64,000 bases of DNA. Origin: Gekko japonicus (lineage: Eukaryota). The notes under the pieces are model-generated. The model did no database searches. It was not told where the DNA came from and saw only the letters and a list, made by a program, of their open reading frames with translations. Positions within the stretch are counted from its first letter, which is position 1; every line of letters starts with the position of its first letter. Location of the stretch: assembly GCF_001447785.1 (NCBI RefSeq), contig NW_015168717.1:102752-166751 (forward strand), given 5' to 3'. The translations under genes were made by a program, and so were the position numbers. Positions 1 to 62,807 of this stretch are shown piece after piece.

Positions 1-625
1 GGTGGTTCCTTCTGGTCATGGACTGTCAGCTACTTTTGCTTTTAAAAGTTTCTCCTTCTCCGTCCTCTTCCCCACCATCTTTATGAGTTGTTTACTTTTG
101 CAAAGATTAGCAAAGTCTCTGAATATGCGCTCAAACGGTCATGCACGCCTTGGTAAGTCTTTCCCAACAGGTTTCATCGCTTTTCCGCCCCCCCCCCCCC
201 CGGTCTTGCTTTTAAGTTTATGCGCATGGGAGGGGGCCGTCCCCCGCTCGCTTTACTTTCTAGTCCGTGGGTTAGGGAGCTTTCTTTTTGAATTGCAAAT
301 ATGCCTTAATCCGACTCACAGTTCATTCTCGGTCATACGACCTCGTTTAGCCTCCGTTTCAACTGCTCGACCTCCAGTGCTTGCCCCGGTCAGCGTCGCT
401 TCTTCCATTCGGACACTCAGCAGGAGGACCATCGGGATGGAGAAGCGCCTCGATTCCCCAGCATTGCGCTGGCGAAGAGGCGACCTCTCAAAAGTCCCCT
501 GGCTAGGTGCCTTTCAGCCAGGCTCCGTGGGAGGTAGCGATTCCTCGCCACCCCCATTCTGCTGGTGCACAGCTTTCACCACTCGGGAGGTCCGGGAGGT
601 GAGTCTGCTCGGCACGCCACCATAG
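1..625 (-). mobile_element. CpG-rich segment, possibly the 5' UTR of a LINE (L1/Tx1-like) continuing off the left edge
   Basis: Abrupt GC/CpG-rich block against AT-rich flank. Minus strand opens with ATGGTGGCG, resembling the YY1-like start of L1 5' ends. The + ORF has no recognisable protein. Confidence 0.3.
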
Positions 626-1800
626 ATCGGAGATTAGAAAGAAAAAAAATAGAAAAAAATATTTCTAACATATTTTTGCAGAACTGATAGAACTTGACTA
701 AAATGTGAATCTAATGCTTCACCCATGGAAAGTTATTACTAATTTCTAATTATAACTATTTGGTTTTTTTTCCTGTTCCTTACTCTTTAATATAATAATC
801 CACTGAAGGTATCACAGATCAGCCATTGTCTAAAGCCACTATATGCAGGTGGGGATAAGAACCTTATTCCATAGCACTCCTTGATGTTTTTACTGCAGTA
901 GTTCTAACGACTTAAGAAACAGGTCTTTTTTTGAGGAGGGAGTGGCTTGTCTCTTTGGTCTTGAAAGCTGCTGTGGTGAAAATCAGAAATGTACACCAAG
1001 AAAACAAAATCATTATACTTTTGTATCTGAGGTTCAGGGGGGATTCCCCCCCCATAACTGCTTATGTTTGTATAGTTCAAGATACAGATGTGTGATTTCT
1101 TGTTTATTTGTTGCTGGAACTTCAGAACCATTACTGTCAATGGGGAATCTTCAGGAGGATCTGGGGCAGCTATTTATAAAGATAATGGCACCAGATTTGC
1201 TCAGTCCTCCCGCTAATCTAATGTTCCCCAAATTTAAAGCAGACTAAGGGGTTCATTTACAGCCCCCCAGAGCAGCTTGCCTCTTGGTACAGGCTCAGTT
1301 CTCTCCATTTATTCTTATTGGGGGAGAATGACACTGGACACAAGCATTAAAAAAATCTGCATTTATCTCATTTTCCTATTCTTACAGTGACTGACTGACA
1401 TTTTTTTAAACCTTTCTGCTGAAAACTCTGACATATGTTATTGTTTTGGTCTGTTTGTTTCACAAAGTGAGGAAGGAGATTGACAGCTTTCCATTATTTT
1501 CTATTGTATATTGGGGGGCTGGAATGTCTGCTTTTCAACCAAATGACACCAAAATCACAGGGGAGTGAGGGCTACATGTCTCCTCAAGACCACCCAAGTT
1601 TCAAGCTGATTGAACCAAGGATTCAAGTTCTATGGGACCATAAGCAAGGTGCCCTCAGGCATTGTATTTTCAGAGAGGGAAAGTGTCCACCCCCCCCCCC
1701 CGAAAGGATACCAAACAAAGGAGTTAAAAAAAAAAGGGAAAGTTGTCCCCCCCCCCCCCCCAAAAAAAAAGAATAGCAACAAAAGGAGTTCATTGGAAAA

Positions 1801-2419
1801 GGTGATAAGGTAAAACAAAATACAACTGTGAAGTGTTTAACTAAACTATTACTTGTTTTTCTTTAAAGGCATATACATGAAAAACTCAAAAGGTTGCCTA
1901 TTTCTCATAAGAACTTTGTCTAAGAATTTAAACAAGAATTATCTTCCAAACTTTAACAAAGCATGAATTGCCAATATCCTTGGCTATAAAGTCCATTTTA
2001 AAGGTTTGCTTGTTGAGTTGTGTGTCAATCAGGCTAGAACGCGTTTCAGGGCACGTCTCTTCTTCCTGCTAGCCTTGTGAAAATTTTAAATTGGATTGTT
2101 TTCCAGAAGTTTTCTCTGACTAAATGCTCACAGTTCGGAGTTGGGATGGCTTCCAATTTCTCTGAGAAGAGGAATGCCTCTCAGCGCCCTAGCTTGAGTG
2201 ACACACGACTCAACAAGCAAATCTTTAAAATGGACTTTATAGCCAAGGATATTGGCAATTCATGCTTTTTCAAAGTTTGGAAGATAATTCTTGTTTAAAT
2301 TCTTAGACAAAGTTCTTATGAGAAATAGGCAACCTTTTGAGTTTTTCATGCATATGGCTTTAAAGAAAAAATGTTTTTATTAAACACTTCACGGTTGTAT
2401 TTTGTTTTATCTTATCACC
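1801..2419. mobile_element. Long inverted repeat (~260-bp arms), probably back-to-back Penelope-like termini
   Basis: 1801-~2065 is the reverse complement of ~2162-2419 (ggtgataag...cttatcacc) at high identity. Hammerhead-like motifs lie at the inner ends of both arms. Confidence 0.75.
2031..2075 (-). ncRNA. Degenerate minimal type I hammerhead ribozyme motif
   Basis: Minus strand AGGCTAG-CAGGAAGA-AGAGACGTGCCCT-GAAACGCGTT-CTAGCCT: perfect 7-bp stem I, stem II, GAAA and palindromic helix III. The CUGANGA box is mutated. Confidence 0.55.
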
Positions 2420-3930
2420 CCCAGAAAGTAGGCCGGAGGCTGGATGGCTGTTTTACTATTATTGCCTATGGAAGGTTTTCAAGGGGGGGAGTGTCTGTTT
2501 TTCAACCAAATGTCACCAAAATTTCAGTGGAGGGATGGCTACCTGTCTTCTCAAGACCAACACAGTTGCAAGTGAATTGGACTAAGGGATCTAATTCTAT
2601 GGGCCCTTGAACAAGGTGCCCCCAGCCATCCTACTTTCAGAGGGTAAATCAGTTCTGTCCCCACAAATGAGGGCGTGATGGAAAGAGGCGGCTCTGTGCA
2701 GCTTGTCTCTAAAGGTGATTGGCTGGGAGCACTCTGTTCTCCTCCATTGCAAGGATCTGACTGGAAGGGAATAATGCCGTTCAGGAAATCAGTGGAATCA
2801 GATATTGAGATGAGTGCATGCTGCATTGCTTGTAAGAACCAGTCCTTGGAAGAAACAATGATTTGTTTTGGGGAAGGGGTTATTGTTATACCAGCAACCC
2901 CAGATTTGCACTACTATTCTGGGAAATCTCTGTACTGACCTGAACCAGAGATTTCCATGTATATCTTTGGTCCAAGAATTTTGTCATGCACGCCCTAGTG
3001 AAAATGTCAACGCACTTTCCATCTATGTGATTTTTGCCTGCTAATGAGTATACATTTTTAAAATGATAGCTATGATCTTGAATTTAAAAAAATGAATTTT
3101 TACTGATATCAACCTTTCGTGAAATACAAATGTGGACAACAGCAGAACCCTTAACTGTGCCATATAAGCTCTTCCAAAGCATTTTATTTTTTACAAGTTT
3201 ATTTCCTTTCATTCTACCCATTAGTTTCCAGTATAGCTGAATACAAGTTTTTTTAAAAAAATCTGTGAATGTATTGTGGAAAACAAACTTAATCAGATGA
3301 ACCCAAAGGCAGGACAAACCATTATAAGCTACAGATAAAAATAATTAAGCACTTGAATACATTTTAGATCCTGCCAAGAACTTGAGAAGACAGGACAGAT
3401 TTAACCTAGCACCTAAAGGGTAGTATAGACTTGCTGAATATTTTAGGAAGAGTATACCATTTGCTGTGGCATCACAGAAAATGCTTTGTCATTGTCATTG
3501 GCTGCCACCCACCTATTCTCTGAAGGTAGTACACCTGGAGCAAAGCCACAGATGATAAATTAACAAAAAATAATGCTTCTTCATACAGGACAAATTATTC
3601 TTCAGATAACTTGGTTCCCTGCCACTTATGGGTTTGTGATTTAAAAGAGACAATACACTTTAAATAGCTTCCAGAAACAAATCAAATGCAGAAATAAACC
3701 AAATACAATAAATCTTACATGTATTTGAGTCCAGCTTTCCTCTGTGTTCATCTTTCAATGAGTGAAATAGGTGGAAGTGAGTTCCACAAGCCCTGTTAAA
3801 TGGCCACTCACCTCATGTTCTCCTTGTGTTGCTGACATCATAGATATTTAGTGCAAACTTTGGTGGGTTTTGATAAGGTTCCACCAAGATCGGGATCTGA
3901 ATCTTTAATTGTATTCAAGTAAACATTTGT

Positions 3931-4280
3931 GGAGCTGCGGTGGCTCAAGTGGTTAAGACGCTGAACTGCAGGCTGTGGAAGGTCAATAGTTCAGCAGTTC
4001 GAGACCCGGGTGCCGCATGACGGAGGGAGCTCCCATCTCTAGTTCCAGCTCCTGCCAACCTAGCAGTTCGAAAGCAAGTAATTGCAAGTAGATAAATAGG
4101 TACCACTTCGGTGGGAAGGTAACAGTGTTCCATGCACCTTGGTATTTAGTCATGCCGGCCACATGACCACGGAAACATCTTCGGACAGCGCTGGCTCTTC
4201 GGCTTTGAAACGGAGATGAGCACCACAACCCTAGAGTCGGATTCGACTGGCTTTTGAGTAAGGGAACCTTTACCTTTTTT
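3931..4280 (+). mobile_element. Sauria SINE, full length
   Basis: tRNA-like head (tggctcaagtggttaa...gttcgagacc), core cctgccaacctagcagttcgaaagc, ACCTTT tail, TSD aaacatttgt at 3921-3930 and 4281-4290. Confidence 0.93.
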
Positions 4281-4697
4281 AAACATTTGTTTGCTTTTGA
4301 TGGAACTCTTAACATCAGAAGATCTGGGACCTTGTTCTGAGCTGTGCAGCCCACTTAATATCTTGGCGCACAATATGACTTCCTCGAGTCATAACTGCTG
4401 CCAGGACATTCTTCGCACCTTTCACACCAGGTACTGCAGTTCCCCCAAATAGACAAGATTTGAAAGCAATGTCTGTCAAAAGATGACACTGCCAAACTCT
4501 AGAAGACATGGCAATAAACCTGAAAACAGATGGGTAGAACAGAAAAAGTAAGAGGTGTGTCTTGTACCACTCAGCCCAAGAAAATATGGTTTTGGAAAAT
4601 GAAAGCATTATGCAACTTCCAAACAGTACTCTCAAAGAAGTTGTTCTGGTAATATTGACAGGTATTGGCCAAGACAACACTTACTAAGAATACTGTG

Positions 4698-5217
4698 GCC
4701 TCGGTCACATGGAAGGTTTTGCCCCGCAAGAGGAATGGATCGGGGGCGCATCAAACGGGCACGATCACACCGCAACATCTGGGAAGTGGAGCGCACTCGT
4801 CCCTGATCCGTCCTTTCCGGGCGAAACCACGCATAAAAAAAAAAACCTAGAAAAGAATACTACCTACCTGAAGCTCCGCAGCAAGGGCGGCCGTGGGATC
4901 GCCGGTGCACCCGTCTTCCGCATCATTTGAGGCTCCTGGCCAAACTGTGCATGTGCACACATGCGCAGCTGGCTGCCTCGCTCTCTGTTCTGTGGCTTCC
5001 CCCCCGGCATCTGATTGTGCCGGGGAGCAACTGCGCGGCAGCTCAAGGGATCTGTCTGATCTCGCCACTGCACGTCTATTTTGCTGCGGCTCAGAAAAGC
5101 CGTGCTTTGGTCGTGTTCCCCCCCCCCCCCCCCGTGGCGCGGGCGGCATTTTTTTTTTATGGCTCAGAAAAGCTGCACTTTGGTCGTGCTTCCCCCCCCC
5201 CCCATGTGACCGGGGCC
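4698..5217. mobile_element. Non-autonomous DNA transposon (PIF/Harbinger-like MITE)
   Basis: TIRs ggcctcggtcacatgg / ccatgtgaccggggcc, CpG-rich, colinear with the copy at 10925-11368. Confidence 0.75.
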
Positions 5218-6072
5218 TAATTTTATTATTGAAAGGATTAACAGAGAATGTCAGTTGTTCAGGAGGCAATGTTTTTGAACTTTTTCAGGATTCACACTAG
5301 GCACTTTCTGATCATTTAACAACTCAAGTCTTCCTTGTATTTAGAGCAGGAGGAATGCACCCTGCTGCAGAGAGGTACTTTGGCAGTAGAGGATAGCATG
5401 GCACAAGTGAGGCAAAGAACAGACAAAGCCTTTTTCTTTATTTTTGTTTCCCCCTTTTAGTTTTGAAGCGTCCTCATCAACAATATGTATTATTTTTTAT
5501 ATGAGATCCCAATAAGCAAGATCCTCTGGAATTCCGAATAAGCAAGTTCTAAAAGGGATATGCTTGGAAAAGGCCTGCCATCTCGGAAGAAAAGAGCCAA
5601 TGCAGGGTGGTAGTTAGACCAGGATCTGGAGAACCTGAGTCCACATTCCACCATGAAGTATTCTGGGTAAACCTGGGCCATGTAGCACAGAGTCAGTAGT
5701 GGAGGCCAAAGGAGACCTCACTTACTGAACTCAAGGCAGCAGCTGCTCCAGGATGGGACAGGGCAGGGCACCTCATGGAAAGGCAGTAATAGCCTGATGG
5801 GCCCAGCAGGAGTGGGGGTGCACCACCTGCAGTACAGTCTCCCTACCACCAGGCAGCAGCTGAGCATCGTGGTCGGCGTAGGAGGTCTGCCCACCCAGGG
5901 CATTAGCTGGGGACATGGGGGACAGCAATGGCCTCTAGCTAGCCCTATCCAAACCCAGTTCGGATGGAGCAAGGCAAGGAAGGGGTTAAAAGAGGGACAA
6001 GGGTCAGAGAAGGGAGGGGTGGTGCTGGGCTTGGTCACTGTAGCAAGGTGGAAGCAGTGGAGACCACACAGG

Positions 6073-6717: not shown

Positions 6718-6953
6718 CTCCTGCCAACCTAGCAGTTCGAAAGCAAGAAATTGCAGGTAGATAAATAAGTACCACTTCAGTGGGAAGGTAACAGCGTTCC
6801 ATGCGCCTTGGTGTTTAGTCAAGCCGGCCACATGACCACGGAAATGTCTTTGGACAGCGCTGGCTCTTCGGCTTTGAAACGGAGATGAGCACCGCAACCC
6901 TAGAGTCGGATTCGACTGGCTTTCGAGCAAGGGAACCTTTACCTTTACCTTTT
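6718..6953 (+). mobile_element. Sauria SINE, 5'-truncated
   Basis: Core plus (ACCTTT)n tail, TSD tatgatgtagt. Confidence 0.92.
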
Positions 6954-13940: not shown

Positions 13941-14290
13941 GTAAAGTGTGCCATCAAGTCACAACTGGCTCATTGCTACCCCAGTGAAGTTCCACTTCAT
14001 GGGGTTTTCAGGGCAAGAGATGAGCAGAGGTGGTTTGCCATTGCCTCAGCATGCATAACAACCCTGGCCTTTCTTGGTAGTCTCCCATTCACATACTGAC
14101 CCTGTTTAGCTTCTGAGTTCAGACAAAATTAAACAGGGTCAGCCCTGGCTAGTATTTGGATGGGAGACCTCCAAGGAGTACCAGGGTCATGGCTCAGAGA
14201 GAGGTAATGGCAAACCACTTCTGAATGGCTCTTGCCTTGAAAACCCTACAGGGTCACCCTAAGTCAGCTGTGACTTGATGGCAAAACAAA
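13941..14290. mobile_element. Two head-to-head 5S-derived SINEs (13941-14128 minus, 14134-14290 plus)
   Basis: agtatttggatgggagacc 5S box on plus and its complement on the left; arms are mutually reverse-complementary (gccatcaagtcaca / tgtgacttgatggc). Confidence 0.75.
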
Positions 14291-22051: not shown

Positions 22052-23185
22052 TCAGTATGTTAATCTGCCACAATTCCACCGGCATTCCAGGAAAGGATTG
22101 GCTTCTGGAGCCAGCTGACGGAATCTCTCCATCTGTTTTTGAGACAGCGCATCAGCAACCCCATTACTGACCTCCAGCACATCCTTAGCTTTAAATATTA
22201 TGTCATACTGTAGGCACTGAAGGGTAAAGGCCCTAACCAGCACCATAACCCTGGGAGACCTTGAGGTGGGTAAGATAATAACATGCACCATGGCCAAATT
22301 GTTGCACCAAAAGGTAATTGGCAAGGTCATTCGCCTAGATCCAAGTCACTACCACTATTAGAAAGAACTCCTGGAATGTCAGGCCAATGGCCCAGCCTGC
22401 CTGGACCCACTCTGGGCCCCTCAGTTTTCTCATGGGCAAGAGGAACACCCATCACCTCCGCCAACTGCATAAAGTCAAGTGGGGACAATTCCCAGAGCCT
22501 GTGGGGCCTGTAAATAAAAAGTCATAGAGATAATGGGCAGTGCTGGTCAAACCTATGCTTACCCGCAAGGCCCAATTCAAAAAGTTACTGAGCTGCTCAA
22601 ATGCAGCACAGGATACCAAGCATCCCATTGGGAGGGCCCTGTCCCTGTAAAATTTCCCAGCAAAAGCAAAGCCTGAGAGATCAAAGTTGTCAGGATGTAC
22701 TGAAAACAGGTGAAAGGCTGACTTGGTATTACATTTGGTCAATTCAGCCTTACACCCACAATGGCACACCATACCTATAGCCTGATCATAAATAACTGAA
22801 CATAACTAATCCGGGATTGCATCATTCACTGAGCTTCTGTGCAGATATGAAAGATGGTGAATGAGGTGATACTCCCCAGGGGCCTTCTTGGGAACCACTC
22901 CCAGTGAGATACCCATAAATTGGAAATAGGTGGGGCAGGAAAAGGGCTTAACACCCTGCCCTCCCTGCATTTCTTACCAATCTTCTCATTGACCATGTGT
23001 TCCATTCCCCTAGCAGATGGTAAGTTGGGAGTCCAGTAAGGTTGTCGTTTGCCCATATACAGAATACAAAAACTAAATTTGAACCTGATTATGTACTCCC
23101 TATCCTGTGATCTGGGATAATGGCACAACCAATGCTCCAATACTAGTATGTTAATTAGACTGGGGCCCTTTTCCAAGCAGGGCAT
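22052..23185 (-). pseudogene. DIRS-type reverse transcriptase and RNase H, disrupted
   Basis: DRALPMGC..SCAAFE, HYLYDFL (mutated YLDD), RNaseH FWCNNLAMV...SNGVADALS. Confidence 0.88.
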
Positions 23186-23904
23186 TTGCCTCCTTTGGCA
23201 TCCCTAGAACCTGGCTTGCTTTTGGCTCGGGGAATGGTGGAAATACATGAGGTCTGACACAGAGGGGCATTCATAATGAAAGTATACGACCTCGTACTGC
23301 AGGCACCCTGAGAGGACAATTCACAACAAAGTGGGAGTTTATGTGATTCCTGTCCTGCTAGGGGGCGAACAGCTACGGTACCTGATGTCCATTGAATGAC
23401 AGAGCACTCCCCTGAGGTAGGACTTGCAGGGGACATTAGCTGCATCCACAATTGTGGTTGGATCTGATCCCACCACAAAACTGGATTCATGGCTGTCCTC
23501 ATGCAAAATTTCTCATCATACTGCATCCATGCTGGCCTGGTAAAATCAGTATATCCCTTGTAAAGTATATCCATGTCTTGGAGCATGGACAAGGTCCTCC
23601 ATAGCTGTGCCCTGACAACCAAGTCTGCATAAATTAGGAAGCCTGGATACCAATTGTCCCATGTTTTATCCACCTTGCAACGCTTCAGGCGTTCCTTGTC
23701 ATGCTCCTCTAGGTTTTTCTTATCTTTCTTTTCTAGCTCACGGTACAATAAGGAAAACACATCAACATATTCACCCCTCAAAATCTTGTCCCTAGTGGCT
23801 GTAGTAAGATGTTCCCCTAAGGGCATTGTCTGGTCCCCCAGTGGCAACACATTTGCCAGCACCATCTCATATGGCTTTCCCCACTGGACCAGGATAACCA
23901 CCAC
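23155..23904 (-). pseudogene. Ngaro gag-like ORF1 fragment
   Basis: PLGEHL...KILRGEYVDVFSLL...AWMQYDEKF motifs typical of DIRS/Ngaro gag. Confidence 0.8.
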
Positions 23905-24420
23905 TAGGCTGGCAACTAATCTGCTGTTGAGAGGGGTGGACCATCAAGGGCCCCCATCCTGTCTGAGGCAGGAGTTGGCCCATGCCCCAAGGCCGGCCAG
24001 TCGGTGGCATGTTAGCATGTGCCTTGTGTGAGTCACTATTAGGCAGTTGTATAGAAGATCCAGGGGCAGCAGCCTGACCCCCAGGCCCCAAGGCGGCTAA
24101 CTTGTGTGTCAGCTCAGTCTTACCTCCTGCCTGTGGAATACCCACATATGGCACCACCTGCTGGTTTTCCACTGACTGTTCCACCTGCTGCTAACCGCCA
24201 TGCCTGGCATCAAGACTTTCAGAAGCTGCTTGCTGGGCTGATGAATCTCCACACCTGCTTTCAATGACAGATAAATGGACCAAAACTTGAGCCTGGAACA
24301 CATTTGTGGAAGACAGTCTAGTCTGCCTAGCCCCCCACCTGAGCCACAAAAGAGGGCCCACCCATCTGCTGTTCAATGGAAGCAAGCCTATTGAAGATGG
24401 GCTTCTTCACAGGGTCATCC

Positions 24421-25714
24421 ATAAGAACATAAGAGATGTCAATGTTGGATCAGGCCAAAGGCCCATCCAGTCCAACACTCTGTGTCACACAGTGGCCAGA
24501 AATACCAGTGCCATCAAAAGGTCCACCAGTGGGGCCAGGACATTAGAAGCCCTCCCACTGTTGACCCCCCCCAAGCACCAAGAAGACAGAGCATCACTTG
24601 CCCCAGAGCCCCTATCTATACCTTGTGGCTAATAGCCACTGATGGACCTCTGCTCCATATGCTTATCTAATTCCCTTTTGAAGCCGTCCATGCTTGTAGC
24701 CGCCACCACCTCCTGTGGCAGTGAATTCCATGTGTTAATCACTCTTTGGGGGAAGAAGCACTTCCTTTTATCCGTTCTAACCCGACCGCTCAGCAATTTT
24801 ATTGAGTGCCCATGAGCTCTTGTATTGTGAGAAAGGGAGAAAAGTACCTCTTTCTCTACCTGCTCTATCCCATGCATAATCTTATAAACCTCAATCATAT
24901 CTCCCCTCAGTTATCGTTTCTCCAAGCGAAAGAGCCCTAAGCGCTTTAACCTTTCCTCATAGGGAAAGTGTTCCAACCCTTTTATCATTCGAGTTGCCCT
25001 TTTCTGCACTTTTTCCAAAGCTATAATATCCTTTTTAAGGTGTGGTGCCCAGAACTGCACACAGTATTCCAAATGAGGTCGCACCATTGATTTATATAGC
25101 GGCATTATGATATTGGCTGATCTGTTTACAATACCCTTCCTAATAATCCCCAGCATAGCATTGGCCTTCTTTATTGCAGTCACACACTGTCTCGACATCT
25201 TCAGTGAGTTATCTACTACAACTCCAAGATCTCTCTCTTGCTCAGTCTCTGCCAGTTCAGACCCCATCAATGTGTATTTATATTTAGGATTTTTGGCTCC
25301 AATGTGCATCACCTTGCACTTGGCCACATTGAACCCCATTTGCCATGTTGACGCCCACTCGCCCATCCTTGACAGATCCCCTTGGAGTGCCTCACAATCC
25401 TCACTGGTTTTCACCACCCCGAACAACTTTGTATCATCCGCAAATTTAGCCACTTCACTGCTTACTCCCATCTCCAAATCATTAATGAACAAGTTAAAAA
25501 GCAGTGGACCAAGTACTGATCCCTGCGGTACCCCACTGCTTACCACCCTCCACTGAGAAAATTGCCCACCTACACTCACTCTCTGTTTTCTATGAACTAG
25601 CCAGTTTTTGATCCATAAAAGGACTTGTCCTTCTATCCCATGATTTTTGAGCTTACTTAGGAGCCTTTGATGAGGAACTTTATCAAAAGCTTTCTGGAAG
25701 TCAAGGTAAATAAT
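24421..25714 (-). mobile_element. CR1 LINE, 5'-truncated and relatively young
   Basis: RT motifs GVPQGSVLGPLLFNLFINDL, KFADDTKL and RPHLEYCVQFW; 3' tail (TTCTTATG)n at 24421-24435. Confidence 0.95.
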
Positions 25715-26182
25715 TCCCCAAGGTCACCTCCTCACAGCCTATCTTCCTGACCAGGCCCCCCCTGGTTACAACTTTGTCCACATGCAATTGCTCCTCAACT
25801 GACTGTGCACTGCCGAATCGGCTAGGCCACCCTATCATGTGCTGGGCCCTGGCCTCCTCCAATGGACCATAATGCCTGGCGCCCTGGCATTTCCGAGTGC
25901 AGCATGTGGTCTGATCAGGCATTGGGTGGTGCCAGGTCTAAAAAGTCTTGGCCCTACCCCCGCCCAGTGTCACGACACACTACGTCTTCACTTGTATCCT
26001 GCTTCCCCCTCCTTCCATGGGGACAAATCGGCTCCCGCTCACCAATGGCAAGCCTCAGAGGGCAATAAGTAGCCGCATTCTGTGAGGTTTTTCACTGGAT
26101 CCAGCCCAATGTGCACATCGAAGTCTGCAAAAATTAATTTCCAGAATAACAGCTTCATATATCAAAACTTGGTTCCATACAG

Positions 26183-26499: not shown

Positions 26500-27275
26500 C
26501 CATGCTATCTTTGTCCCTGCCTATAGAGGTGAGGTGGGCTGCATGTAGAGACAGGCTGTTTTCAGCAGTGGCACCTCACCTTTCGAACATCCTTCCCCCA
26601 TGCAGCTCACCTGGCCCCTGCCATATTGACTTTGAGGCACCACACTGAAACTTTTCTTTTTATACAGATATTTTAACTAAGGGGCTTTACTTCATAAGCT
26701 GTTTTGTACTCAGCTTCTAACCTGTCATCTCTTTTATGGCTATATGGCTCAATTGTGGTTTTATGCCCATGACTTGTATCTCATGGCTTGCTTTTAATAC
26801 TGATAATTTGTGTTGTTTTATGGTCTTGTTTTGATGTTTGATGGTATTGGTTTTCTTTATAAAGGAGCTGCGGCGGCTCAAGTAGTTAAGACGCTGAACT
26901 GCAGGCTGTGGAAGGTCAGTAGTTCAGCAGTTCGAGACCGGGGTGCCGCAAGATGGAGTGAGCTCTCGTCTCTAGTTCCAGCTCCTGCCAACCTAGCAGT
27001 TCGAAAAAAGCAAGAAATTGCAAGTAGATAAATAGGTACCACTTCGGTGGGAAGGTAACAGCGTTCTATGCGCCTTGGTGTTTAGTCATGCCAGCCACAT
27101 GACCACAGAAACATCTTCGGACAGCGCTGGCTCTTCGGCTTGGAAACGGAGATGAACACTGCAACCCTAGAGTCGGATTCGACTGGCTTTCGAGCAAGGG
27201 AACCTTTACCTTTCTTTATAAGCCACCTCAAGCAGGTATCTGGAGAGATGGCATATAAATTCCCTAAACAAACAA
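26500..27275 (+). mobile_element. L2-type LINE 3' end interrupted by a Sauria SINE
   Basis: Homologous to the other L2 ends; resumes at 27211 and ends ggcatataaat..aaacaaacaaat. Confidence 0.6.
26864..27210 (+). mobile_element. Sauria SINE, full length
   Basis: Near-identical to the 3931 copy; TSD tttctttataa. Confidence 0.93.
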
Positions 27276-41081: not shown

Positions 41082-41424
41082 AGCTGTGGTGGCTCAAGTG
41101 GTTAAGACACTGAACTGCAGGCTGGAAGGTCGGTAGTTCAGCAATTCGAGACCCAAGTGCTGAATGACGGAATGAGCTCCTGTCTCTGGTTCCAGCTCCT
41201 GCCAACCTAGCAGTTCGAAAGCAAGGAACTGCAAGTAGATAAATAGGTACCGCTTCGGTGGGAAGGTAATAGCATTCCTTGGCATCTAGTCATGCCAGCC
41301 ACATGACCACGGAAATATCTTTGGACAGCGCTGGCTCTTCGGCTTGGAAACAGAGGTGAGCAGCACAATCCTAGAGTTGGATTTGACTGGCTTTCAAACA
41401 AGGGAAACCTTTACCTTTACCTTT
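41082..41424 (+). mobile_element. Sauria SINE, more diverged
   Basis: Homologous to the other copies, ACCTTT tail, no clear TSD. Confidence 0.9.
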
Positions 41425-45623: not shown

Positions 45624-45830
45624 ATCCAGATGGTCAGCCGTGTTGGTCTGAAGCAGTGAAACAAATTTAGAGTCCAGTGGCACCTTTTTTCCCCCCAAGG
45701 TATGAGCTTTCGTGTACACACACACTTTTTCCAGATCCTTCCAATGTATTTGAAAAAGAGTGTGTGCACATGAAAGCTCATACCTTGAATAAAACTTTGT
45801 AGGTCTTAAAGGTGTCACTGGACTCTAAAT
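45624..45830. mobile_element. Penelope-like termini in inverted arrangement, with two degenerate hammerhead motifs
   Basis: Arms aatttagagtccagtggcacc / ggtgtcactggactctaaatt and caaggtatgagctttc / gaaagctcataccttg. Confidence 0.75.
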
Positions 45831-47830: not shown

Positions 47831-48572
47831 GGGTGAGTTGTCCACTGTTGAGAGGCAGAGGCCATTGAAAAGCTCCTTCTCATGCCTCTCTCCATTCAGT
47901 TCCATCAATCAGCTTCCATGCTTTCAAATCTTCTCCTCCATTTCCAGAAAGTGGACAAGGTAAAGCACACACCCAATGCCAATTGGGCAGGGAACTAACA
48001 TTGTGTAATAACATTTCATGCACCTATGAATCTCTCGGTCATCCCCTTCAAAATTACTTTGAGGGTTTGGAAGAGAGATAACCCAACAGAACATTGCAAA
48101 AATGAGAAGGGAATGTTTAAGGCACTGTGACTGGGCATTTTAAAGTAGTTTTAAAATGTCCAGTGGACACAGATTGGATTCATGACTTTCAAGCCCTGAA
48201 ACTGTATACATAAAGGTGAGTCTTTTTGTTTTAAAAAAGGGCAGGCATAGAAAAAATACACAGGCATGGTGAAGTGGTAATTGCTGTGTACAAAAAGGGC
48301 AGCACACATATACCTCATACCCCCCATAACCCCATTCGGCTCTAGAATTCACCACCCGTCACTAAGGGAATCTTGTCAAAGTGACAGCAATGAGAAAAAC
48401 AAGTCCATCGTTTAGTGCTGTGACCATTAACACGAGACTCTTTAAACTGCATTTTTTTTGTTTGTTTCTGCCTCCTTCCCTTATGCAGGGCCCTGTATGT
48501 ACACGATATCTTAAAACATGTGACAACAAATGCCAGGTAAAAAGTACAAAATTACAGCTTGGATATAGGTAA

Positions 48573-48920
48573 AAAAATAAAGGTTCCCTTGCTCGAAAGC
48601 CAGTCGAATCCGACTCTAGGGTTGCGGTGCTCATCTCCGTTTCAAAGCCGAAGAGCCAGCGCTGTCCGAAGACGTTTCTGTGGTCATGTGGCCGGCATGA
48701 CTAAACACCAAGGCGCACGGAACGCTGTTACCTTCCCACCAAAGTGGTACCTATTTATCTACTTGCAATTTCTTGCTTTCGAACTGCTAGGTTGGCAGGA
48801 GCTGGAACTAGAAACTGGAGCTCACTCCGTCTTGCGGCACCCGGGTCTCGAACTGCTGAACTACTGACCTTCCACAGCCTGCAGTTCAGCATCTTAACCA
48901 CTTGAGCCACCGCAGCTCAA
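48573..48920 (-). mobile_element. Sauria SINE, full length
   Basis: Near-identical to the other copies; TSD ggatataggtaa. Confidence 0.93.
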
Positions 48921-53214: not shown

Positions 53215-56200
53215 GAGCTTTAATTTAGCTCAATAGACCAGAGGTTTTAAGCTTATACAGAACTGAAATAAAATTATAGCATCAGTTGATATTACATAGG
53301 AGAATTAAAACAAATCCAATAAACAAGTAATAAAATAAAATCTGAATCATCATAATATAAAAACCATAGAACCATAACAGTTTTGGAGAAAATTAAAATT
53401 CCTTACTATGATAAATACACTGTGTAAGAGTTAATAAAAGGTTAAGATGAGATAGACCCTAAATGATAAGATAGGGTAAACCTTTTGTTAAGATCTTCAG
53501 AATCATGAGTTGATTGTAATTTAACATTCCAGTAAGTCATATAATAAAACAATCATTTATTTGCAGTTAATTTAGGGACATTTCTCTGTCATTTCAGAGA
53601 GATTATTATTGCCAGATATTTTGTGACAGAATAAGATTTCAGGATTGATATTTGTCAATAGTTGGGATGTTAACCAAGATTCCATAGGAATACGATTTTT
53701 AAGCAAGATTGGACTAATTCACAGGGAACTGCGAACTCACCATTGGGAACAGAACAATAAGAGGTGGTCCAGTGACTCTAATGCACCAGATGCACAGTCA
53801 CATAACCAATCTGAATACAGGATTTTCACAAAATGACCCATTAGCTTTGCAGTCAGAAAAGTGTATAACCTAGCAAGCGTGAAAGCATGTCTGTGACTAG
53901 GGATTGTGAGAAATCTCATATACGAAGGTAGAATCAATGGGGGATTATTAAGCAGCGTAGCAGTTTGAGCATATCATCTATATATCTTTCCCACGTACTT
54001 CTATGATTATCCTCCTTCAGCAAGTGTAGAAGATCCCTTTGAAGACTGGATGCTGAACAGAAAGCCTTCAATCTTAGTTTGGAGGTAGCCATCCAGGCTC
54101 TCAGTTCAAAAGTGCATTGTGTTTGTTCCAGTCGAAGCACATTTCTTGCAAAACATCTAGGGACTCCCGCCAGCCAGCACAGAAACTGAACAAGTGTGTT
54201 ATCCAAGGATTCAGAGACTTCATCTATCCAGATGGCTGCCCCATATAGAATCTGAGGGATTATTTTAGTGTTAAAAGCTCTGATAGCCATTGGTACATAC
54301 TGCCTGCCTTTCAAATAAAAGAACTTTAGGAGTGCATTTGAATTTATTCTAGCAGTATCAATTACTGAGTGGAAATGTGACCTCCAAGACAGATTGTAAC
54401 TAAAAGTCACTCCCAGGTATTTAAATTGGGTCATCTGCTCTATTTTCCCTCCCTTGATGGTCCATGTTTTCTGGATATGGCAAGGCTTCTTTGAAAAACC
54501 CATTATTTTCAATTTATCATAATTTAGTGAGAGTCCCTCATGATTGCAATAATGAATGAACACATTTAGTACCTTACAGAGGCCCGCTTCTCATCTGGAT
54601 AGTAGGCGTGTATCATCCACTTTAAGCAGGATGGGAATTTCAAACCTGGCTAATATAAGCGTGTGGTAGGCAATCTTGTTTTACTCCTTTCAAGAGACTG
54701 AATTGAGCTGGTAAGCTAGTGTCCAAGCCACAATGGACTTGCACAGTAGGATTCTCATATAGTTTGAAAATAAGCCAAAGTAATCTTTTTCTATTGTTTT
54801 ATTCAGCTTGGCCCAAAGGCAGGATCTAGGGACTGAATCAAAGACAACCCTAAGATCCATAAAAGCTATGTAGAGGCAACCAACTGAATACGAGGAATAT
54901 TTATCAGCTAAGTGATATAGGATAAGGCAATGATCTAAGGCCTTTCTTGAACCCAGTTTGCTCAGGGTATGTTATTGCTTTTGCCTCCAATCATGTCAAT
55001 AATTTGGAATATAGGAAAGCTATGTACACCTTACCTATTGATGAAAGCAGACTGATAGGCCAATAATCTACAGGGCCATTTCTTGGACCTTTTTTAATGT
55101 ATCGGTAATATCGTTGTATATTTCCAGGAGGTGGGAATAATTCCTGTGTTATTAATTTGAATGAAGAGAGGAGCCAAGATATTGCTCCACCAAGGCAAAT
55201 TAGTTTTCAATAAATCAATTGGAATTAAGTCCGGCCTTGGAGCTTTACCAGAGTGCATTTGCTTAATTAGGGAGTTCACTGTCTCCAGAAGGACTAGAGC
55301 CCAGATATCAGTTCGAGGAGTCTCAATCTGGTCTGTTACAAAATCAAATCCAGGTGTCTCTATGAAGGTAGAAGTAAAATGCCGTTCTCAGATCACAGAC
55401 GTGAAGCATGAAGGGAAGCTAACTACCAAAGAGAGGCCCCTATTAACCATGTTCCAGATGGTCTGTGACTCATTATTGATAATACCTGAAATTATAATCT
55501 CCCAGTTCTTATGTAGGGCCAGCCCTTTTTTTAGACTTCATCACTGTCCTGAACGCCCTTTTCACTGACATAAAATTTAATAGGTATAACTGTAAATTAG
55601 TGTGTTTAAATAGATGGAGTTTAAATCTAATTCTTCTAATGTATTCTCTATATACTCCCCATCAAACCAATTGTTTTTGTGCTCGTATCTGAAGGGAGTT
55701 GAATATTTTAAACAGACTGACTTAAAGAGATCTAGAATATTGGACATTAGGTGTAACATTCTTACTATATCCCTCTGTTTAAAAAATTCTGCAAGAACAG
55801 ACTTGCAGTTGTTGGAATTCATAATATTCAATACTGTAGGGATTAAGTCAGGTGACCATCTAATTGGTTTCAGAATTTTCCCACTTTATAGCAAACCAGA
55901 TGATGATCCAGTTGGTAACAATCAGTCAGAGGGAAATGAGATAGTAAGTTGCAATGGGAGATGATCGCCTCCATGGTAATTTCCTAGCTTAAAATTGTAG
56001 ATCTACAGAAGGAAGCCAACCGAAACTAACATATAATCAATTACACTAGTATCACTCTGTGTCACACATGTAAAGTTCCCTACAAGATCTAAATTTGTAA
56101 AGCCATTTAGAATCACCAAGCCATGGTTCAATGTACAGTTAAATAACTTTTTACCAACAAAATTGACTTTAGTGTCTTTGGGTGTTCTCTCATACAAATA

Positions 56201-56520
56201 CAGATATGAAAGCTCATCCAAAGACTCCACCATCCCAGATGTTAGAAGGGCTTCACCATTTTGGCCAATATGGGCATCGAAATCACCTGCTAGTAATACC
56301 AGAGCTCTAGGGTATTGTACCATGATCATCTCTAGAAGGTTCCCCAGCTCTTTCCAAAATGCTGTAATGTCCCTTTGCAACATTTGTGGTAGGAAATAGG
56401 TTGTAACAATTATGAGAAAGGGCTGGAAACTGGAACAGCAGTGCAATTATGCACTCCTGAGAGATGATCCAAGGTATACTGGAGCAATTTAATGCTGAGG
56501 AAAGTAGACATGCTAAACCT
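53215..56520 (-). mobile_element. Decayed non-LTR retrotransposon ORF2 (APE endonuclease, RT, CCHC); RTEX-like, clade uncertain
   Basis: LLAGDFDAHIG and SVIDYMLVS (APE); GKAPRPDLIP and QFKYLGVTF (RT); CDC..ESLDHLLLFC (zinc knuckle). Many frameshifts. Confidence 0.85.
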
Positions 56521-56760: not shown

Positions 56761-57030
56761 TACTAGGGAAAAAAAAGATTTTTTNNNNNNNNNNNNNNNN
56801 NNNNNNNNNNNNNNNNNNNNNNNNNNNNNNNNNNNNNNNNNNNNNNNNNNNNNNNNNNNNNNNNNNNNNNNNNNNNNNNNNNNNNNNNNNNNNNNNNNNN
56901 NNNNNNNNNNNNNNAAAGTGTCAACATTAGGACTTCCATCAACAGCAATCATGTCTCATCCTGAAACTAGGAGAAGTAATAATGGGGGGAAGATGTCTCT
57001 GGGGATAGGCAGAAAACTTTCTTTTCTTTA

Positions 57031-57327
57031 AAAAGGTAAAGGTTCCCTTGCTCGAAAGCCAGTCGAATCCGACTCTAGGGTTGCGGTGCTCATCTCCGTT
57101 TCAAAGTCGAAGAGCCAGCGCTGTCCGAAGACGTTTCCGTGGTCATGTGGCCAGCATGACTAAACACCAAGGTGCACGGAACGCTGTTACCTTCCCACCG
57201 AAGTGGCTAGGTTGGCAGGAGCTGGAACTAGAGACAGGAGCTCACCCCGTTTTGCGGCACCCGGGTCTTGAACTGCTGAACTACTGACCTTCCACAGCCT
57301 GCAGTTCAGCATCTTAACCACTTTGAG
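57031..57327 (-). mobile_element. Sauria SINE with internal deletion
   Basis: TSD cttttcttta; lacks ~39 nt between aagtgg and ctaggttgg relative to the 48573 copy. Confidence 0.92.
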
Positions 57328-58556
57328 CTTTTCTTTACTAAGTAGCTATTGCTCCCTCATAAGGGGGAAACACACCTCGGCATCTCTCCAAGCCGAAGAC
57401 AAATGTCAGGAGTCAATGTATCTATGGAGTTGCATGTAGTGGTTGTGCACGCATGCCTGTCCTGCTTCTTGGCATGATAGAAAATGGTTATGGCAGGATC
57501 CTATGTGCTTATGGGAAATGTCACAATTCTAAGAAATATGAGAGCAGGAACAACAATTACATTAATTAAGAATAAGGGAGATGATCCCCCGCCCCCCGGT
57601 AAGGCAGAGTGAACAATGTCGGGTCAATATGTGCTAGAGATGTGCAGCTGGAAATTTACTACTCAAAAGCTGACCCAAGCAATCCTCTTTTGAGAATTTA
57701 GGCTGTATCATGATAAACCATAATTTGTGCAACAAATTCTTGTTAGTGTACCAGACACAACCAGACACAACTCACACCTTCTGGCTTGGGCATAACCCAC
57801 AGTTTATTTGCTTCTTGCCTCCTCTCTAGGCCTGTCCATATATTACATGCATTACAATGGATGTGTGTACACCCTGCATCTGCTTGGAGGGAAAATCCAA
57901 CACATGGATGAAAATAAACCAGGGAGACCAAAACCTGGATAAATGTTGGGTTTAAATCACATGTTTGGAGGGACATGCATTAAATATAATGTAAGAATTG
58001 CTCAATGCGTCTATAAGGAAAAATATTAACGTGCTGTGAATACAGATTCACTGTAATGTGTGTACAAGGATTCTGCCTCCTAGCAAGAAAGACATCCTTC
58101 CTAGATTTGTCTTTTCTGTGGTGTCTACAAGTAGTGCTGCCTCGGGTGGTTTGTGAGCTCAAGTACCACAACAAACCTCAATGAACACAAACTATGGTTA
58201 ATAAAGCAGCTACAAACTATCATTTAACCCATGGAATCTCCAGTTTGTTGGAGTGGTTGTATTCAGGCTTCACAGCTAATTAAGTGTAGCCAAACCATGG
58301 TATATAAACCACTGTTTATCATCCAGTACTACTGTAGCCTTTGTACTGACAAAAAGAGTTTCAGGGGAGGTGAAAGGTATGTTTGTATTTTTTACACCTT
58401 TTCCACACAATTTTTACGCCATCCATATAGAATTGTTGCAAGAACAGGAATGAGTACTTCTACTGAATATCATTAGCATGCCCAGGAAAAAAGATGCCTC
58501 ATGTGAGTGGAGAAAACTCCTCTCAGTGTGTAACAAGATGATATGCCTGATGTGTT

Positions 58557-59971: not shown

Positions 59972-60798
59972 TCCCTCCTCCCAGAGCTCCTCTAAAGGCT
60001 GAGGCATGGTCCAGGGGATGGGTGTGAAAATCCAACCACCATGACCTCGCCCAGCCATCCGCTTCTCCAGGGATCTTACCTTCTCCAAAAGCCCATAGTG
60101 CACAGCAACCCTGAAGGGTTCTCTAAGTAAGACTCTGGATTCAGAGGTGTGGTGACCTAGGCAAGGGAAGCTCCTCTGCAGAAAGTTCCCACCAGCAGCT
60201 CACTCACACGTGGTCTAATAAGGGCTGCTGGGAGTGGGGGAGGGGCTTGTTTAAGCGGGAGGGCAGGGCAGGGCTGCCCACTGCACTTGCAAAACACATG
60301 GAGGAGAGATTCAGAAGAAGGCTGTCTGGAGAAGGGGAGGGGAGACAGACATGCCTGCATTACCTGCCTGTTGTTCTCAGGCAGAGAACCCAGGCATTTA
60401 AATCCCCCCTTCCCCTGAGTCTCTCCGCAAAAGCGGAGAGGCTTAGGGGAAAGGGGGTATGTCTGTTCATCTCCCCTTCCCTTCTCCAGCCAGCCCACTG
60501 CAGCAGGCTGGCTGGAGAAGGGGAGGGCAGGGAGGCAGACATGCCTGCGAGAACATTGGGTAGGGAACCCAGGCATGTGTAGAATGTCTTTCTCTTTCTT
60601 CCCCATCTGGGGAAGGGAAAGAAAGGCAGTCAAATCCCCCCAGTCAGCAGGGGGCTCTGCAGGGCTTCCCTGGACCATATGCCTGTGCAGGCGGGCCAGG
60701 AATGGTGGAGGGGGGGGCGCCCTGGGCTCCTTACTGCCGGAGCGCCGCTTCACTGTGCTCCGGCAGGAAATGACCCCTGGTAATAAGTAAAAGAAACA

Positions 60799-61600: not shown

Positions 61601-62679
61601 CAGACTAGATGAAGTTCAGCCTTGGTCCTAACAGCTTTCAAGGCTTAACAGCATTTTCACTGGGGCAGTACCAGATAAATTGCTCTTATGTGTGCATACA
61701 GGAGGCTCCAAATTCCTTTGAAAGTTTCTAATTTCTCATGGGAAGACCCAGCATAAAAGTTACTTTTACTCATAGAAAAACAACACCATATTTTCCTGTC
61801 AACCTTTGCTGTTGGGAATTTCAGGCTTCTTGCATTTTTTCCCCATGATTCTTTGTTGACTCAAGGGACAGGCGTTTACAACATAATTTACTTTTGGCAT
61901 GTCTCTGTAAATCATTGTAATGCTCTCTAAAAAAGAGCCCCACTCATGTTGGACTGACAAGCCACATTTCTTAGCTTCCAATGGCAGGGAGAGAGAAAAA
62001 AAAATCAAAACCTCCCATTGAGAATGGGGAGCATGGAAAGAACATGACAGAAGTCATTTTTGAAGGATTTTATATGTACTTTGATATCAATAGAGTTGTG
62101 AAAACATTGCCTAGAATTGTTACTGTGCTAAGGGATTAGGATTTTCTAAAATCAGGAAAGGAAGTTAGAGAAATGGATCGGCAAGGATCAAGAATGGGCA
62201 GGTGCACCAGTTTCCCAGAATGCCATTGATACAGGCCTCTACCAAGCTTCATGTGGCCCACTATCCATCTCCTGGGAACTTCCAGCTACTTAAAAAGGGG
62301 ACCTTTCTCAGCCAAATTTTGCAGCAGAGGAAGGCAGCAAAACCAGGGAGGTTTTTTGTTGTTGTTTTTGTATCTAGCACCTGGTGGACTTGGTGGGTAT
62401 GTAGCATTATGACTTTATTCAACACAAAAACATTCAGCATTAGCATACTAACTTCAAAAGATTATGTCTAGTTTGCTACATGTGTTTATTTATTTACCAA
62501 AGGTCACCAAAATAACTTGGTGCTGAGAATTCTCCATTGGGAACTCAGTGCCTAAGCATGGGCAGACCTGATTCAGATGGGAACCACGGGGTGCAAAAAG
62601 TGGGCACTTAAGCCTTCCCCCACTGCACCATTTTTCCTGACCCCAAACAGCCATTATTTGCTCCTCTGAAGAACTTTAG

Positions 62680-62807
62680 GGCTGCGATCACACGCACTAA
62701 ATAATGCACTTTCAATCCACTTTCCAACTGGATTTTAGTGTGAACTGGCAAAATTCAGTTGGAAAGTGCATTGAAAGTGGATTATTTAGTGTGTATGACT
62801 GCAGCCC
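62680..62807. mobile_element. Palindromic Harbinger-like MITE
   Basis: gggctgcgatcacacgcactaaataat / attatttagtgtgtatgactgcagccc; the element folds back along its whole length. Confidence 0.8.

Follow-up and report, generated by a model that had tools for sequence, protein, structure and literature searches.

The EN+ Penelope-like elements (PLEs) of the Neptune clade, as described in the available text of Craig et al. (bioRxiv 10.1101/2021.04.23.441226) and Arkhipova et al. (2013, PMC3846280), have an inverted, 5'-truncated pseudo-LTR (pLTR), a 30–40-bp tail at one end, a palindromic inverted junction, short duplications, a pLTR with a transcription start and an intron, and a GIY-YIG domain at the C-terminus. 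The family reported here resembles them in these points. However, their insertions are biased toward microsatellites or AT-rich sequences (10.1101/2021.04.23.441226; PMC3846280), whereas the present family favors one GC-rich site in a MITE. The precise PLE target described in the available text, 28S rDNA, was reported only for an endonuclease-less spike-moss group (10.1101/2021.04.23.441226). In the case of D. virilis Penelope, the pLTR contains a transcription start and an intron (PMC2377424), and this intron ends at helix I (PMC4209133), just before it as in the present family. The minimal PLE hammerheads of Cervera and De la Pena (2014, PMC4209133) share with this family the type I topology, the extra base after A9, G10.1-C11.1, and a palindromic helix III. 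Their published consensus core, in the accessible part of that paper, is the 8-nt CUGANGAH with U3-A8 as a described variant, whereas the present family has the 9-nt CAGGAAGAA and a 3-bp stem II.

Two further systems are relevant. According to the available text of Frangieh et al. (2024, PMC11167929), the protein of Poseidon PAc from Anolis carolinensis cleaves both target strands and extends them, and two internal reverse transcription start sites define the tail, as is proposed below for the present family. The preference of PAc is for AT-rich 5'-ATT-3', and its initiation proceeds without target homology, whereas the present family favors a fixed, tail-like MITE site; moreover, the PAc ORF begins in stem II, whereas the likely ORF start of the present family lies after the tail (PMC11167929). 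The animal non-LTR retrozymes in the accessible text of Li et al. (bioRxiv 10.64898/2026.07.22.740005) are noncoding, hammerhead-bearing, and pLTR-related, as are the copies studied here. However, retrozymes consist of tandem units with complete hammerheads, whereas the present copies are dispersed, occur singly or head to head, and have a broken core.

The locus lies in a 64,000-nt stretch of the Gekko japonicus genome (contig NW_015168717.1, positions 102,752–166,751), which is hereafter called the window. A sequence-only reading had described ~260-bp inverted arms that begin at back-to-back hammerheads, the second of them with a decayed core. The palindrome was real, with 91.6% identity between 1801–2037 and 2189–2419 over 237 nt (E 5e-95) in a self-comparison within the window, and a second within-window alignment gave two segments, 187 nt at 95% and 58 nt at 84%. 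At ~237 nt, the arms were a little shorter than described. The minus-strand motif at 2031–2075 was present as quoted, with stem I, a core box, stem II, GAAA, and a palindromic helix III. It was also the only one, as the sequence taken for a second core (2162–2178, plus strand) corresponds, in reverse complement, to the initial 17 nt of the family unit. It is antisense of the 5' end of the unit and not a ribozyme, and it is common in single-arm copies.

The main arm (1801–2178, minus strand) is a spliced pLTR unit assigned to a Neptune-type PLE, and it runs from a fixed 5' end at 2178 to a short 3' end at ~1803. The fixed 5' end of spliced copies (2171–2178, minus strand) is likely the transcription start because all observed copies that extend upstream of the unit start retain the intron. 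A 3' tail extension was found on the main arm only, at about 1774–1800 (minus strand), and its score exceeded that of 1000/1000 shuffles. A second, degenerate tail-like copy lies outside the left arm at about 1704–1745 (minus strand), past a poly-T/poly-G run, with 0/1000 shuffles as good. Given these two tails, the left limit of the insertion is further out than had been described. The degenerate tail is perhaps an aborted earlier initiation. A tail-only piece resembling it was seen elsewhere (L046:715–742).

The two arms are joined head to head by a short 6-nt fold-back (2179–2184, plus strand), and similar junction fold-backs were seen in L002, L011, and L026. The second arm (2185–2419, plus strand) is inverted and 5'-truncated; it starts in helix III/stem I (2185–2189), 0–5 nt before the hammerhead cut site, and ends at the short 3' end with no tail. 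No clear target-site duplication was found for the window copy, as the candidate scored 7.5 against a control of 7.0. Two 160-nt repeats, 79% identical, bracket the insertion at 1514–1675 and 2483–2642; since they are older than the arms, they are not its duplication. The flagged palindrome is an ordinary PLE insertion with textbook PLE anatomy, and its description as pLTR pieces of an apparently inactive Neptune-type PLE, inserted head to head, is supported.

A genome search with the window unit gave 114 matches from the best 40 candidates scored. With two further searches and retrieved stretches, at least 47 independent loci were obtained, a lower bound reached with the best 40 candidates of each search. 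L053, which duplicates L068, L058, which duplicates L074, and L059, at the same place as L163, were left out of this count. The common unit was ~380 nt long, corresponding to 2178 to ~1803 on the window minus strand, and the copies were mostly 70–90% identical to the window copy. Their 5' ends were concentrated near the unit start, with 17 of the 31 listed beginning at unit positions 1–5. Many copies were single-armed, and several other loci were palindromic. The head-to-head junctions varied between the loci compared; thus, the palindrome is constructed anew at each insertion. Direct repeats were found at the junctions of 16 of 43 loci, 11 of these being 11–15 nt long, while 27 of the 43 had none. 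One copy (L006:1504–1907) had a 38-bp flanking duplication, well above the 11–15-bp mode. Another locus, L061 (G000:C11304:245–2605), comprised several clustered, inverted pieces from a divergent subfamily.

The earlier assignment to Penelope was supported by the intron loss, the one-sided tail, and the GIY-YIG link, and it can be sharpened to a probable Neptune type. Six other copies keep an intron of 106–130 nt with GTAAG donors and, in five of the six, an AG acceptor; the 3' end of this intron lies a few bases ahead of stem I. In the window copy, the GT..AG intron is exactly missing, at 2081/2082 (minus strand). Because the intron was precisely lost, an RNA intermediate and the sense strand are established. 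Moreover, a 30-nt tail continues past many 3' ends and, by eye, was found at one end only in 9/9 head-to-head insertions for which the two outer ends were listed.

The enzyme link of the family is carried by decayed fragments. Upstream of the unit in the duplicated, intron-bearing pair L074 and L058, a frameshifted, decayed GIY-YIG C-terminus was found, which matched PF01541 at E 0.002, under the curated cut-off, and an intact sister ORF at E 2e-14 (tblastx). In L059/L163, an ORF with an internal deletion is present; its DKG-like motif is from the region upstream of the RT core. Searching an arm against the genome for a coding link, as had been suggested, gave GIY-YIG remnants and a DKG-like ORF, while the RT core was not found. 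In DNA searches of the genome (1 and 5 matches), no intact or RT-core-bearing family copy was found, and a 142-aa fragment used as a protein query against longer proteins gave no match at E ≤ 0.001. The genome has many intact relatives of 690–798 aa, and RVT_1 was matched in 4/4 sister ORFs scanned and GIY-YIG in 2/4. The CxxCxxC linker motif was present in 6/7 intact closest relatives, the linker itself being missing from the family's own fragments. Together with a likeness of motifs, from which we take the Neptune clade label, this points to a PLE of Neptune type. The order in which the sister families resembled the decayed fragments was not consistent, as family A was best for 3/4 C-terminal pieces and others were best for the N-terminal piece; accordingly, it is not claimed that target preference follows relatedness.

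Two other suggestions of the sequence-only reading were not borne out. A retrozyme-like family was disfavored because none of the 47 loci held a head-to-tail monomer array and because the unit has a link to PLE coding sequence. The other Penelope family that had been mentioned for the window was not found either, as seven sister ORFs used as queries detected no other RT/GIY-YIG Penelope coding sequence there. The window contains open frames on the minus strand (23155–23943, 24911–25723, 53934–54590, and 56003–56446) that look like retroelement fragments, presumably a DIRS-like gag, a CR1-like RT, and other LINE pieces. It also contains six SINE-like repeat copies (3931–4280, 6718–6946, 26864–27216, 41082–41418, 48570–48918, and 57027–57328), which we take to be Sauria SINE, and four other imperfect palindromes unrelated to the family (14002–14246, 45696–45787, 60471–60530, and 62679–62807).

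In the type I minimal hammerhead-derived motif of the window (minus strand), stem I is formed by 2069–2075 with 2031–2037, the core occupies 2060–2068, stem II 2048–2059, and GAAA with the palindromic helix III 2038–2047; the scissile position would be 2037/2038. Stem II is damaged in this copy, and the core is 9 nt long and noncanonical. An Rfam scan of window positions 1–6000 gave no hammerhead at E ≤ 10 and three weak unrelated matches, and the isolated motif folded no better than shuffles (z −1.4). Thus, the identity of the motif rests on the family context. The core was CAGGAAGAA in 27/36 aligned copies; core position 4 was A in 35/36 and G in 1/36, and U4 occurred in 0/36. U4 was also missing in 11/11 pattern matches with a free core, and all subfamilies sampled retained the same 9-nt core. 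The family consensus accordingly lacks CUGANGA, which lowers the earlier claim of an active ribozyme and leaves PLE membership unaffected. The family majority was otherwise intact, with C3, G8, the extra A after A9, G10.1-C11.1, GAAA, the palindromic helix III, and the GUC triplet. In the stems, 88% of cells were paired, compared with 12–48% in slid controls, and CpG decay reduced helix III.

The sister families have cores of their own, CTGAGGAA in 27/27 matches and CTGACGAA in 18/18 matches. One of them carries the same GAAA-CGCG helix III, which supports the descent of the family motif from a true hammerhead. A relaxed hammerhead scan of the sister loci gave no match, and the sister motifs were then located by a looser scan and by eye; six chance matches of the first core pattern, which had an unsuited spacer, fell in loci used as background. 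Downstream of the ORF stop in L150 (~1200), L153, L154, L156, and L165, sister Neptune hammerheads have a long, stable helix III and a 3-bp stem II, with cores such as CTGACGAA, and differ from the minimal dimer type known from animal PLEs. Judging from their predicted structure, they may cleave as monomers. A U3-A8 hammerhead variant was seen in the downstream pLTR of L155, a Neptune pLTR. An HDV-like ribozyme at the fixed 5' end was considered and rejected, as no P1 partner was seen by eye and Rfam gave no match.

By descent, the motif is a real PLE hammerhead, with a core (U4 replaced and one extra base) that was already altered in the source elements and that likely cut poorly or not at all. 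The distribution of 5' ends is also informative. Secondary 5' ends lay within −22..+5 of the cut site in 11/44 cases (P 0.002), some of the 44 starts being breaks from later insertions or deletions. Nine of these 11 hairpin-proximal ends were upstream of the scissile bond and two were exactly on it (L014 and L076). Because nine of the 11 were upstream, the reverse transcriptase appears to have usually crossed an uncut bond. The arm starts were rejected as proof of in vivo cleavage for the same reason. Cleavage could explain the second arm of the window, which starts ≤5 nt from the cut site, and the starts of L014 and L076.

The alternative is an active core, which would represent a hitherto undescribed hammerhead variant with U4 changed to A and one inserted base, functioning as a dimer or with help from the PLE protein. 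The intact remainder of the motif, the retention of one 9-nt core in all sampled subfamilies, and the two arms that begin exactly at the cut site agree with it. Moreover, cleavage by the anole PLE hammerhead depends on protein, as stated in the available text of PMC11167929, and low-activity natural core variants exist according to the accessible part of PMC3088659. However, U4 was present in every motif in the text-readable part of Cervera Fig. S3 and no motif lacked it there (PMC4209133), and insertions near C3 or after A6 strongly reduced activity (PMC3088659, same part). The 5' ends upstream of the scissile bond also stand against activity, as does the cofolding of two L022 motifs, which gave no intermolecular helix III. 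Covariation in the three helices was not detected (score 0.120 against 0.121 for shuffled data), the test being weak for copies that decay neutrally. We therefore consider an active variant unlikely, while giving it some weight. With a poorly cutting or inactive core preferred, the family likely spread despite an impaired hammerhead. Similarly, hammerhead mutants of the anole PLE did not prevent insertion in vitro in the available text of PMC11167929.

The outer flanks of the copies recurrently entered one sequence, namely the left-hand end of a TIR element of ~210 bp. This host MITE has 11-bp TIRs, with both ends seen in 5/12 loci and, by eye, 8-bp-like flanking repeats in some; we take it to be hAT-like from its TIR motif. 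It is abundant, with 5,086 exact genomic matches to a 21-mer, and loose sites occurred at a density of about one per 11 kb (13 in 141 kb). A restricted classifier placed 26/49 loci at the MITE site, compared with 13/1500 random points. In an unrestricted alignment to the whole MITE, 31/47 loci lay against the MITE, and 19/24 forward junctions were at MITE positions 5–16 and 14/19 reverse junctions at 19–28. By this count, 21/47 loci were at the site in strict windows, 24 with three just outside, and up to 27 with degenerate cases. Most other MITE junctions were, by eye, near internal repeats of a CTCCAG motif. The family thus inserts preferentially at a quasi-palindromic site at MITE positions ~10–25, in about half of the loci. 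The window copy is off-target, between the two older 160-nt repeats.

Other Neptune families were compared at the same site. As a control, two sister families had 0/33 and 0/40 ends there, the reverse test spanning 90 nt, which is short for the tailed ends of one family, in which none were seen by eye. In contrast, a young sister family, L152/L158, with intact 753-aa ORFs, had 5/26 listed ends at the site, from three insertions, one of which sits, by eye, in a degenerate site. Its copies are 96–98% identical among the best 40 of 467 candidates, and its intact ORFs stand in tandem. In the pLTR of this family, a hammerhead-like box precedes GTAAA and not GAAA, and the linker gave no CxxCxxC match. 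L130 and probably L176, both of other families, also end at the MITE site.

The centre of the site is near-palindromic (ACCT-CC-AGGT), which suits a dimer cutting both strands. Furthermore, the tail end of the family matches the MITE terminus in 10/11 bases, and 4–5 nt of primer-RNA pairing is possible on both strands. The D. virilis endonuclease was reported to need its own tail sequence for recognition (cited in the accessible text of PMC11167929). We lean slightly toward an endonuclease that recognizes a site mimicking the element's own tail end, helped by the 4–5-nt primer-RNA pairing on both strands, as the cause of the preference. Tail mimicry alone does not account for the use of the site by the young sister family; because that family shows no obvious likeness between tail and terminus, a preference of the protein also counts.

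The main rival holds that the site is a general hotspot of breakage or accessibility, for example through a hAT transposase nick or the binding of a host protein, which captures any cDNA with no sequence preference on the side of the PLE. It draws on 3/12 listed MITE ends that are joined to foreign sequence near this position. All three lie at ~1520, at the same MITE position; L174 has a short insert with a duplication, L175 a SINE-like element in truncated form, and L176 a PLE-like piece. However, the two abundant sister Neptune families of the control avoid the site (0/73 ends), the site lies 10–25 bp inside the terminus and not at a transposase cut, and the duplication length equals that of off-target family copies. 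Accordingly, we regard a general hotspot as rather improbable.

A passive association, in which a PLE piece landed in the MITE once or a few times and the composite then spread by DNA transposition, would fit the abundance of the TIR element and the similar outer flanks of L002 and L005. However, orientation, splicing, truncation point, and tail-bearing end vary among the copies at the site, and many of these copies have their own 11–15-bp duplication; since orientation, splicing, and tail side differ, the copies are separate events. Moreover, unrelated Neptune families (L130, L151/L197, L182, and L207) end at the same position, and passive spread is thus very unlikely. The preference for the MITE site is therefore better ascribed to recurrent insertion. 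Fixed-site insertion in DNA transposons or MITEs is a property of Tx1-clade LINEs (Tx1 and Kibi), which have an AP-type endonuclease and near-strict specificity. In contrast, the present family is a GIY-YIG PLE with ~50% of its copies on target. Judged from the listings of a literature search, no MITE-targeting PLE was found, and nothing on this family was found by sequence or by words.

The head-to-head palindrome can be combined with the altered hammerhead and the preferred MITE site in one account, which we consider highly probable. In it, the 5' end of a Neptune-type PLE RNA was copied twice into cDNA, and these two cDNAs form the palindrome. The GIY-YIG/RT protein of the element likely cuts both target strands ~11–15 bp apart, and reverse transcription would be primed from each end. 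By analogy with the anole PLE, each cDNA would begin at one of two internal initiation sites, which give the short end and the tail end. In the window, one cDNA would have reached the start of the spliced transcript and the other would have halted in the hammerhead hairpin, and the two would then have been joined head to head. For such structures, the available text of Arkhipova et al. (2013, PMC3846280) proposes self-priming on an antisense template; a sense template is favored here because the main arm is spliced. A fixed structure of a stand-alone nonautonomous element, a MITE or a tandem retrozyme, is suggested by the 620-bp TIR look of the window palindrome and by the several other palindromic loci, but its probability is negligible, as the junctions are different in every copy, many copies are single-armed, arms and duplication lengths vary as they should not in a MITE, and a PLE origin of the unit is indicated by the intron loss, the tail, and the remnants of coding sequence.

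The new part of these results is the MITE target preference, the palindrome itself being ordinary. This family bears on how PLEs choose and cut their targets and on what role their hammerheads have. The presence of the family at dozens of loci with a core without U4 agrees with in vitro results in which insertion did not require cleavage. Furthermore, because the recurrent target is defined, its junctions are known on both strands, and an intact young relative also uses it, nicks, stagger, and priming can be tested on one substrate. More broadly, we give an even chance to the reading that a sub-group of EN+ Penelope elements is now sequence-targeted, in which a GIY-YIG dimer would read the tail-mimicking MITE site, the MITE would serve as a safe landing pad, and the hammerhead would have been lost as a catalyst. 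If this is true, the young sister family with intact 753-aa ORFs would make PLE target choice directly testable.
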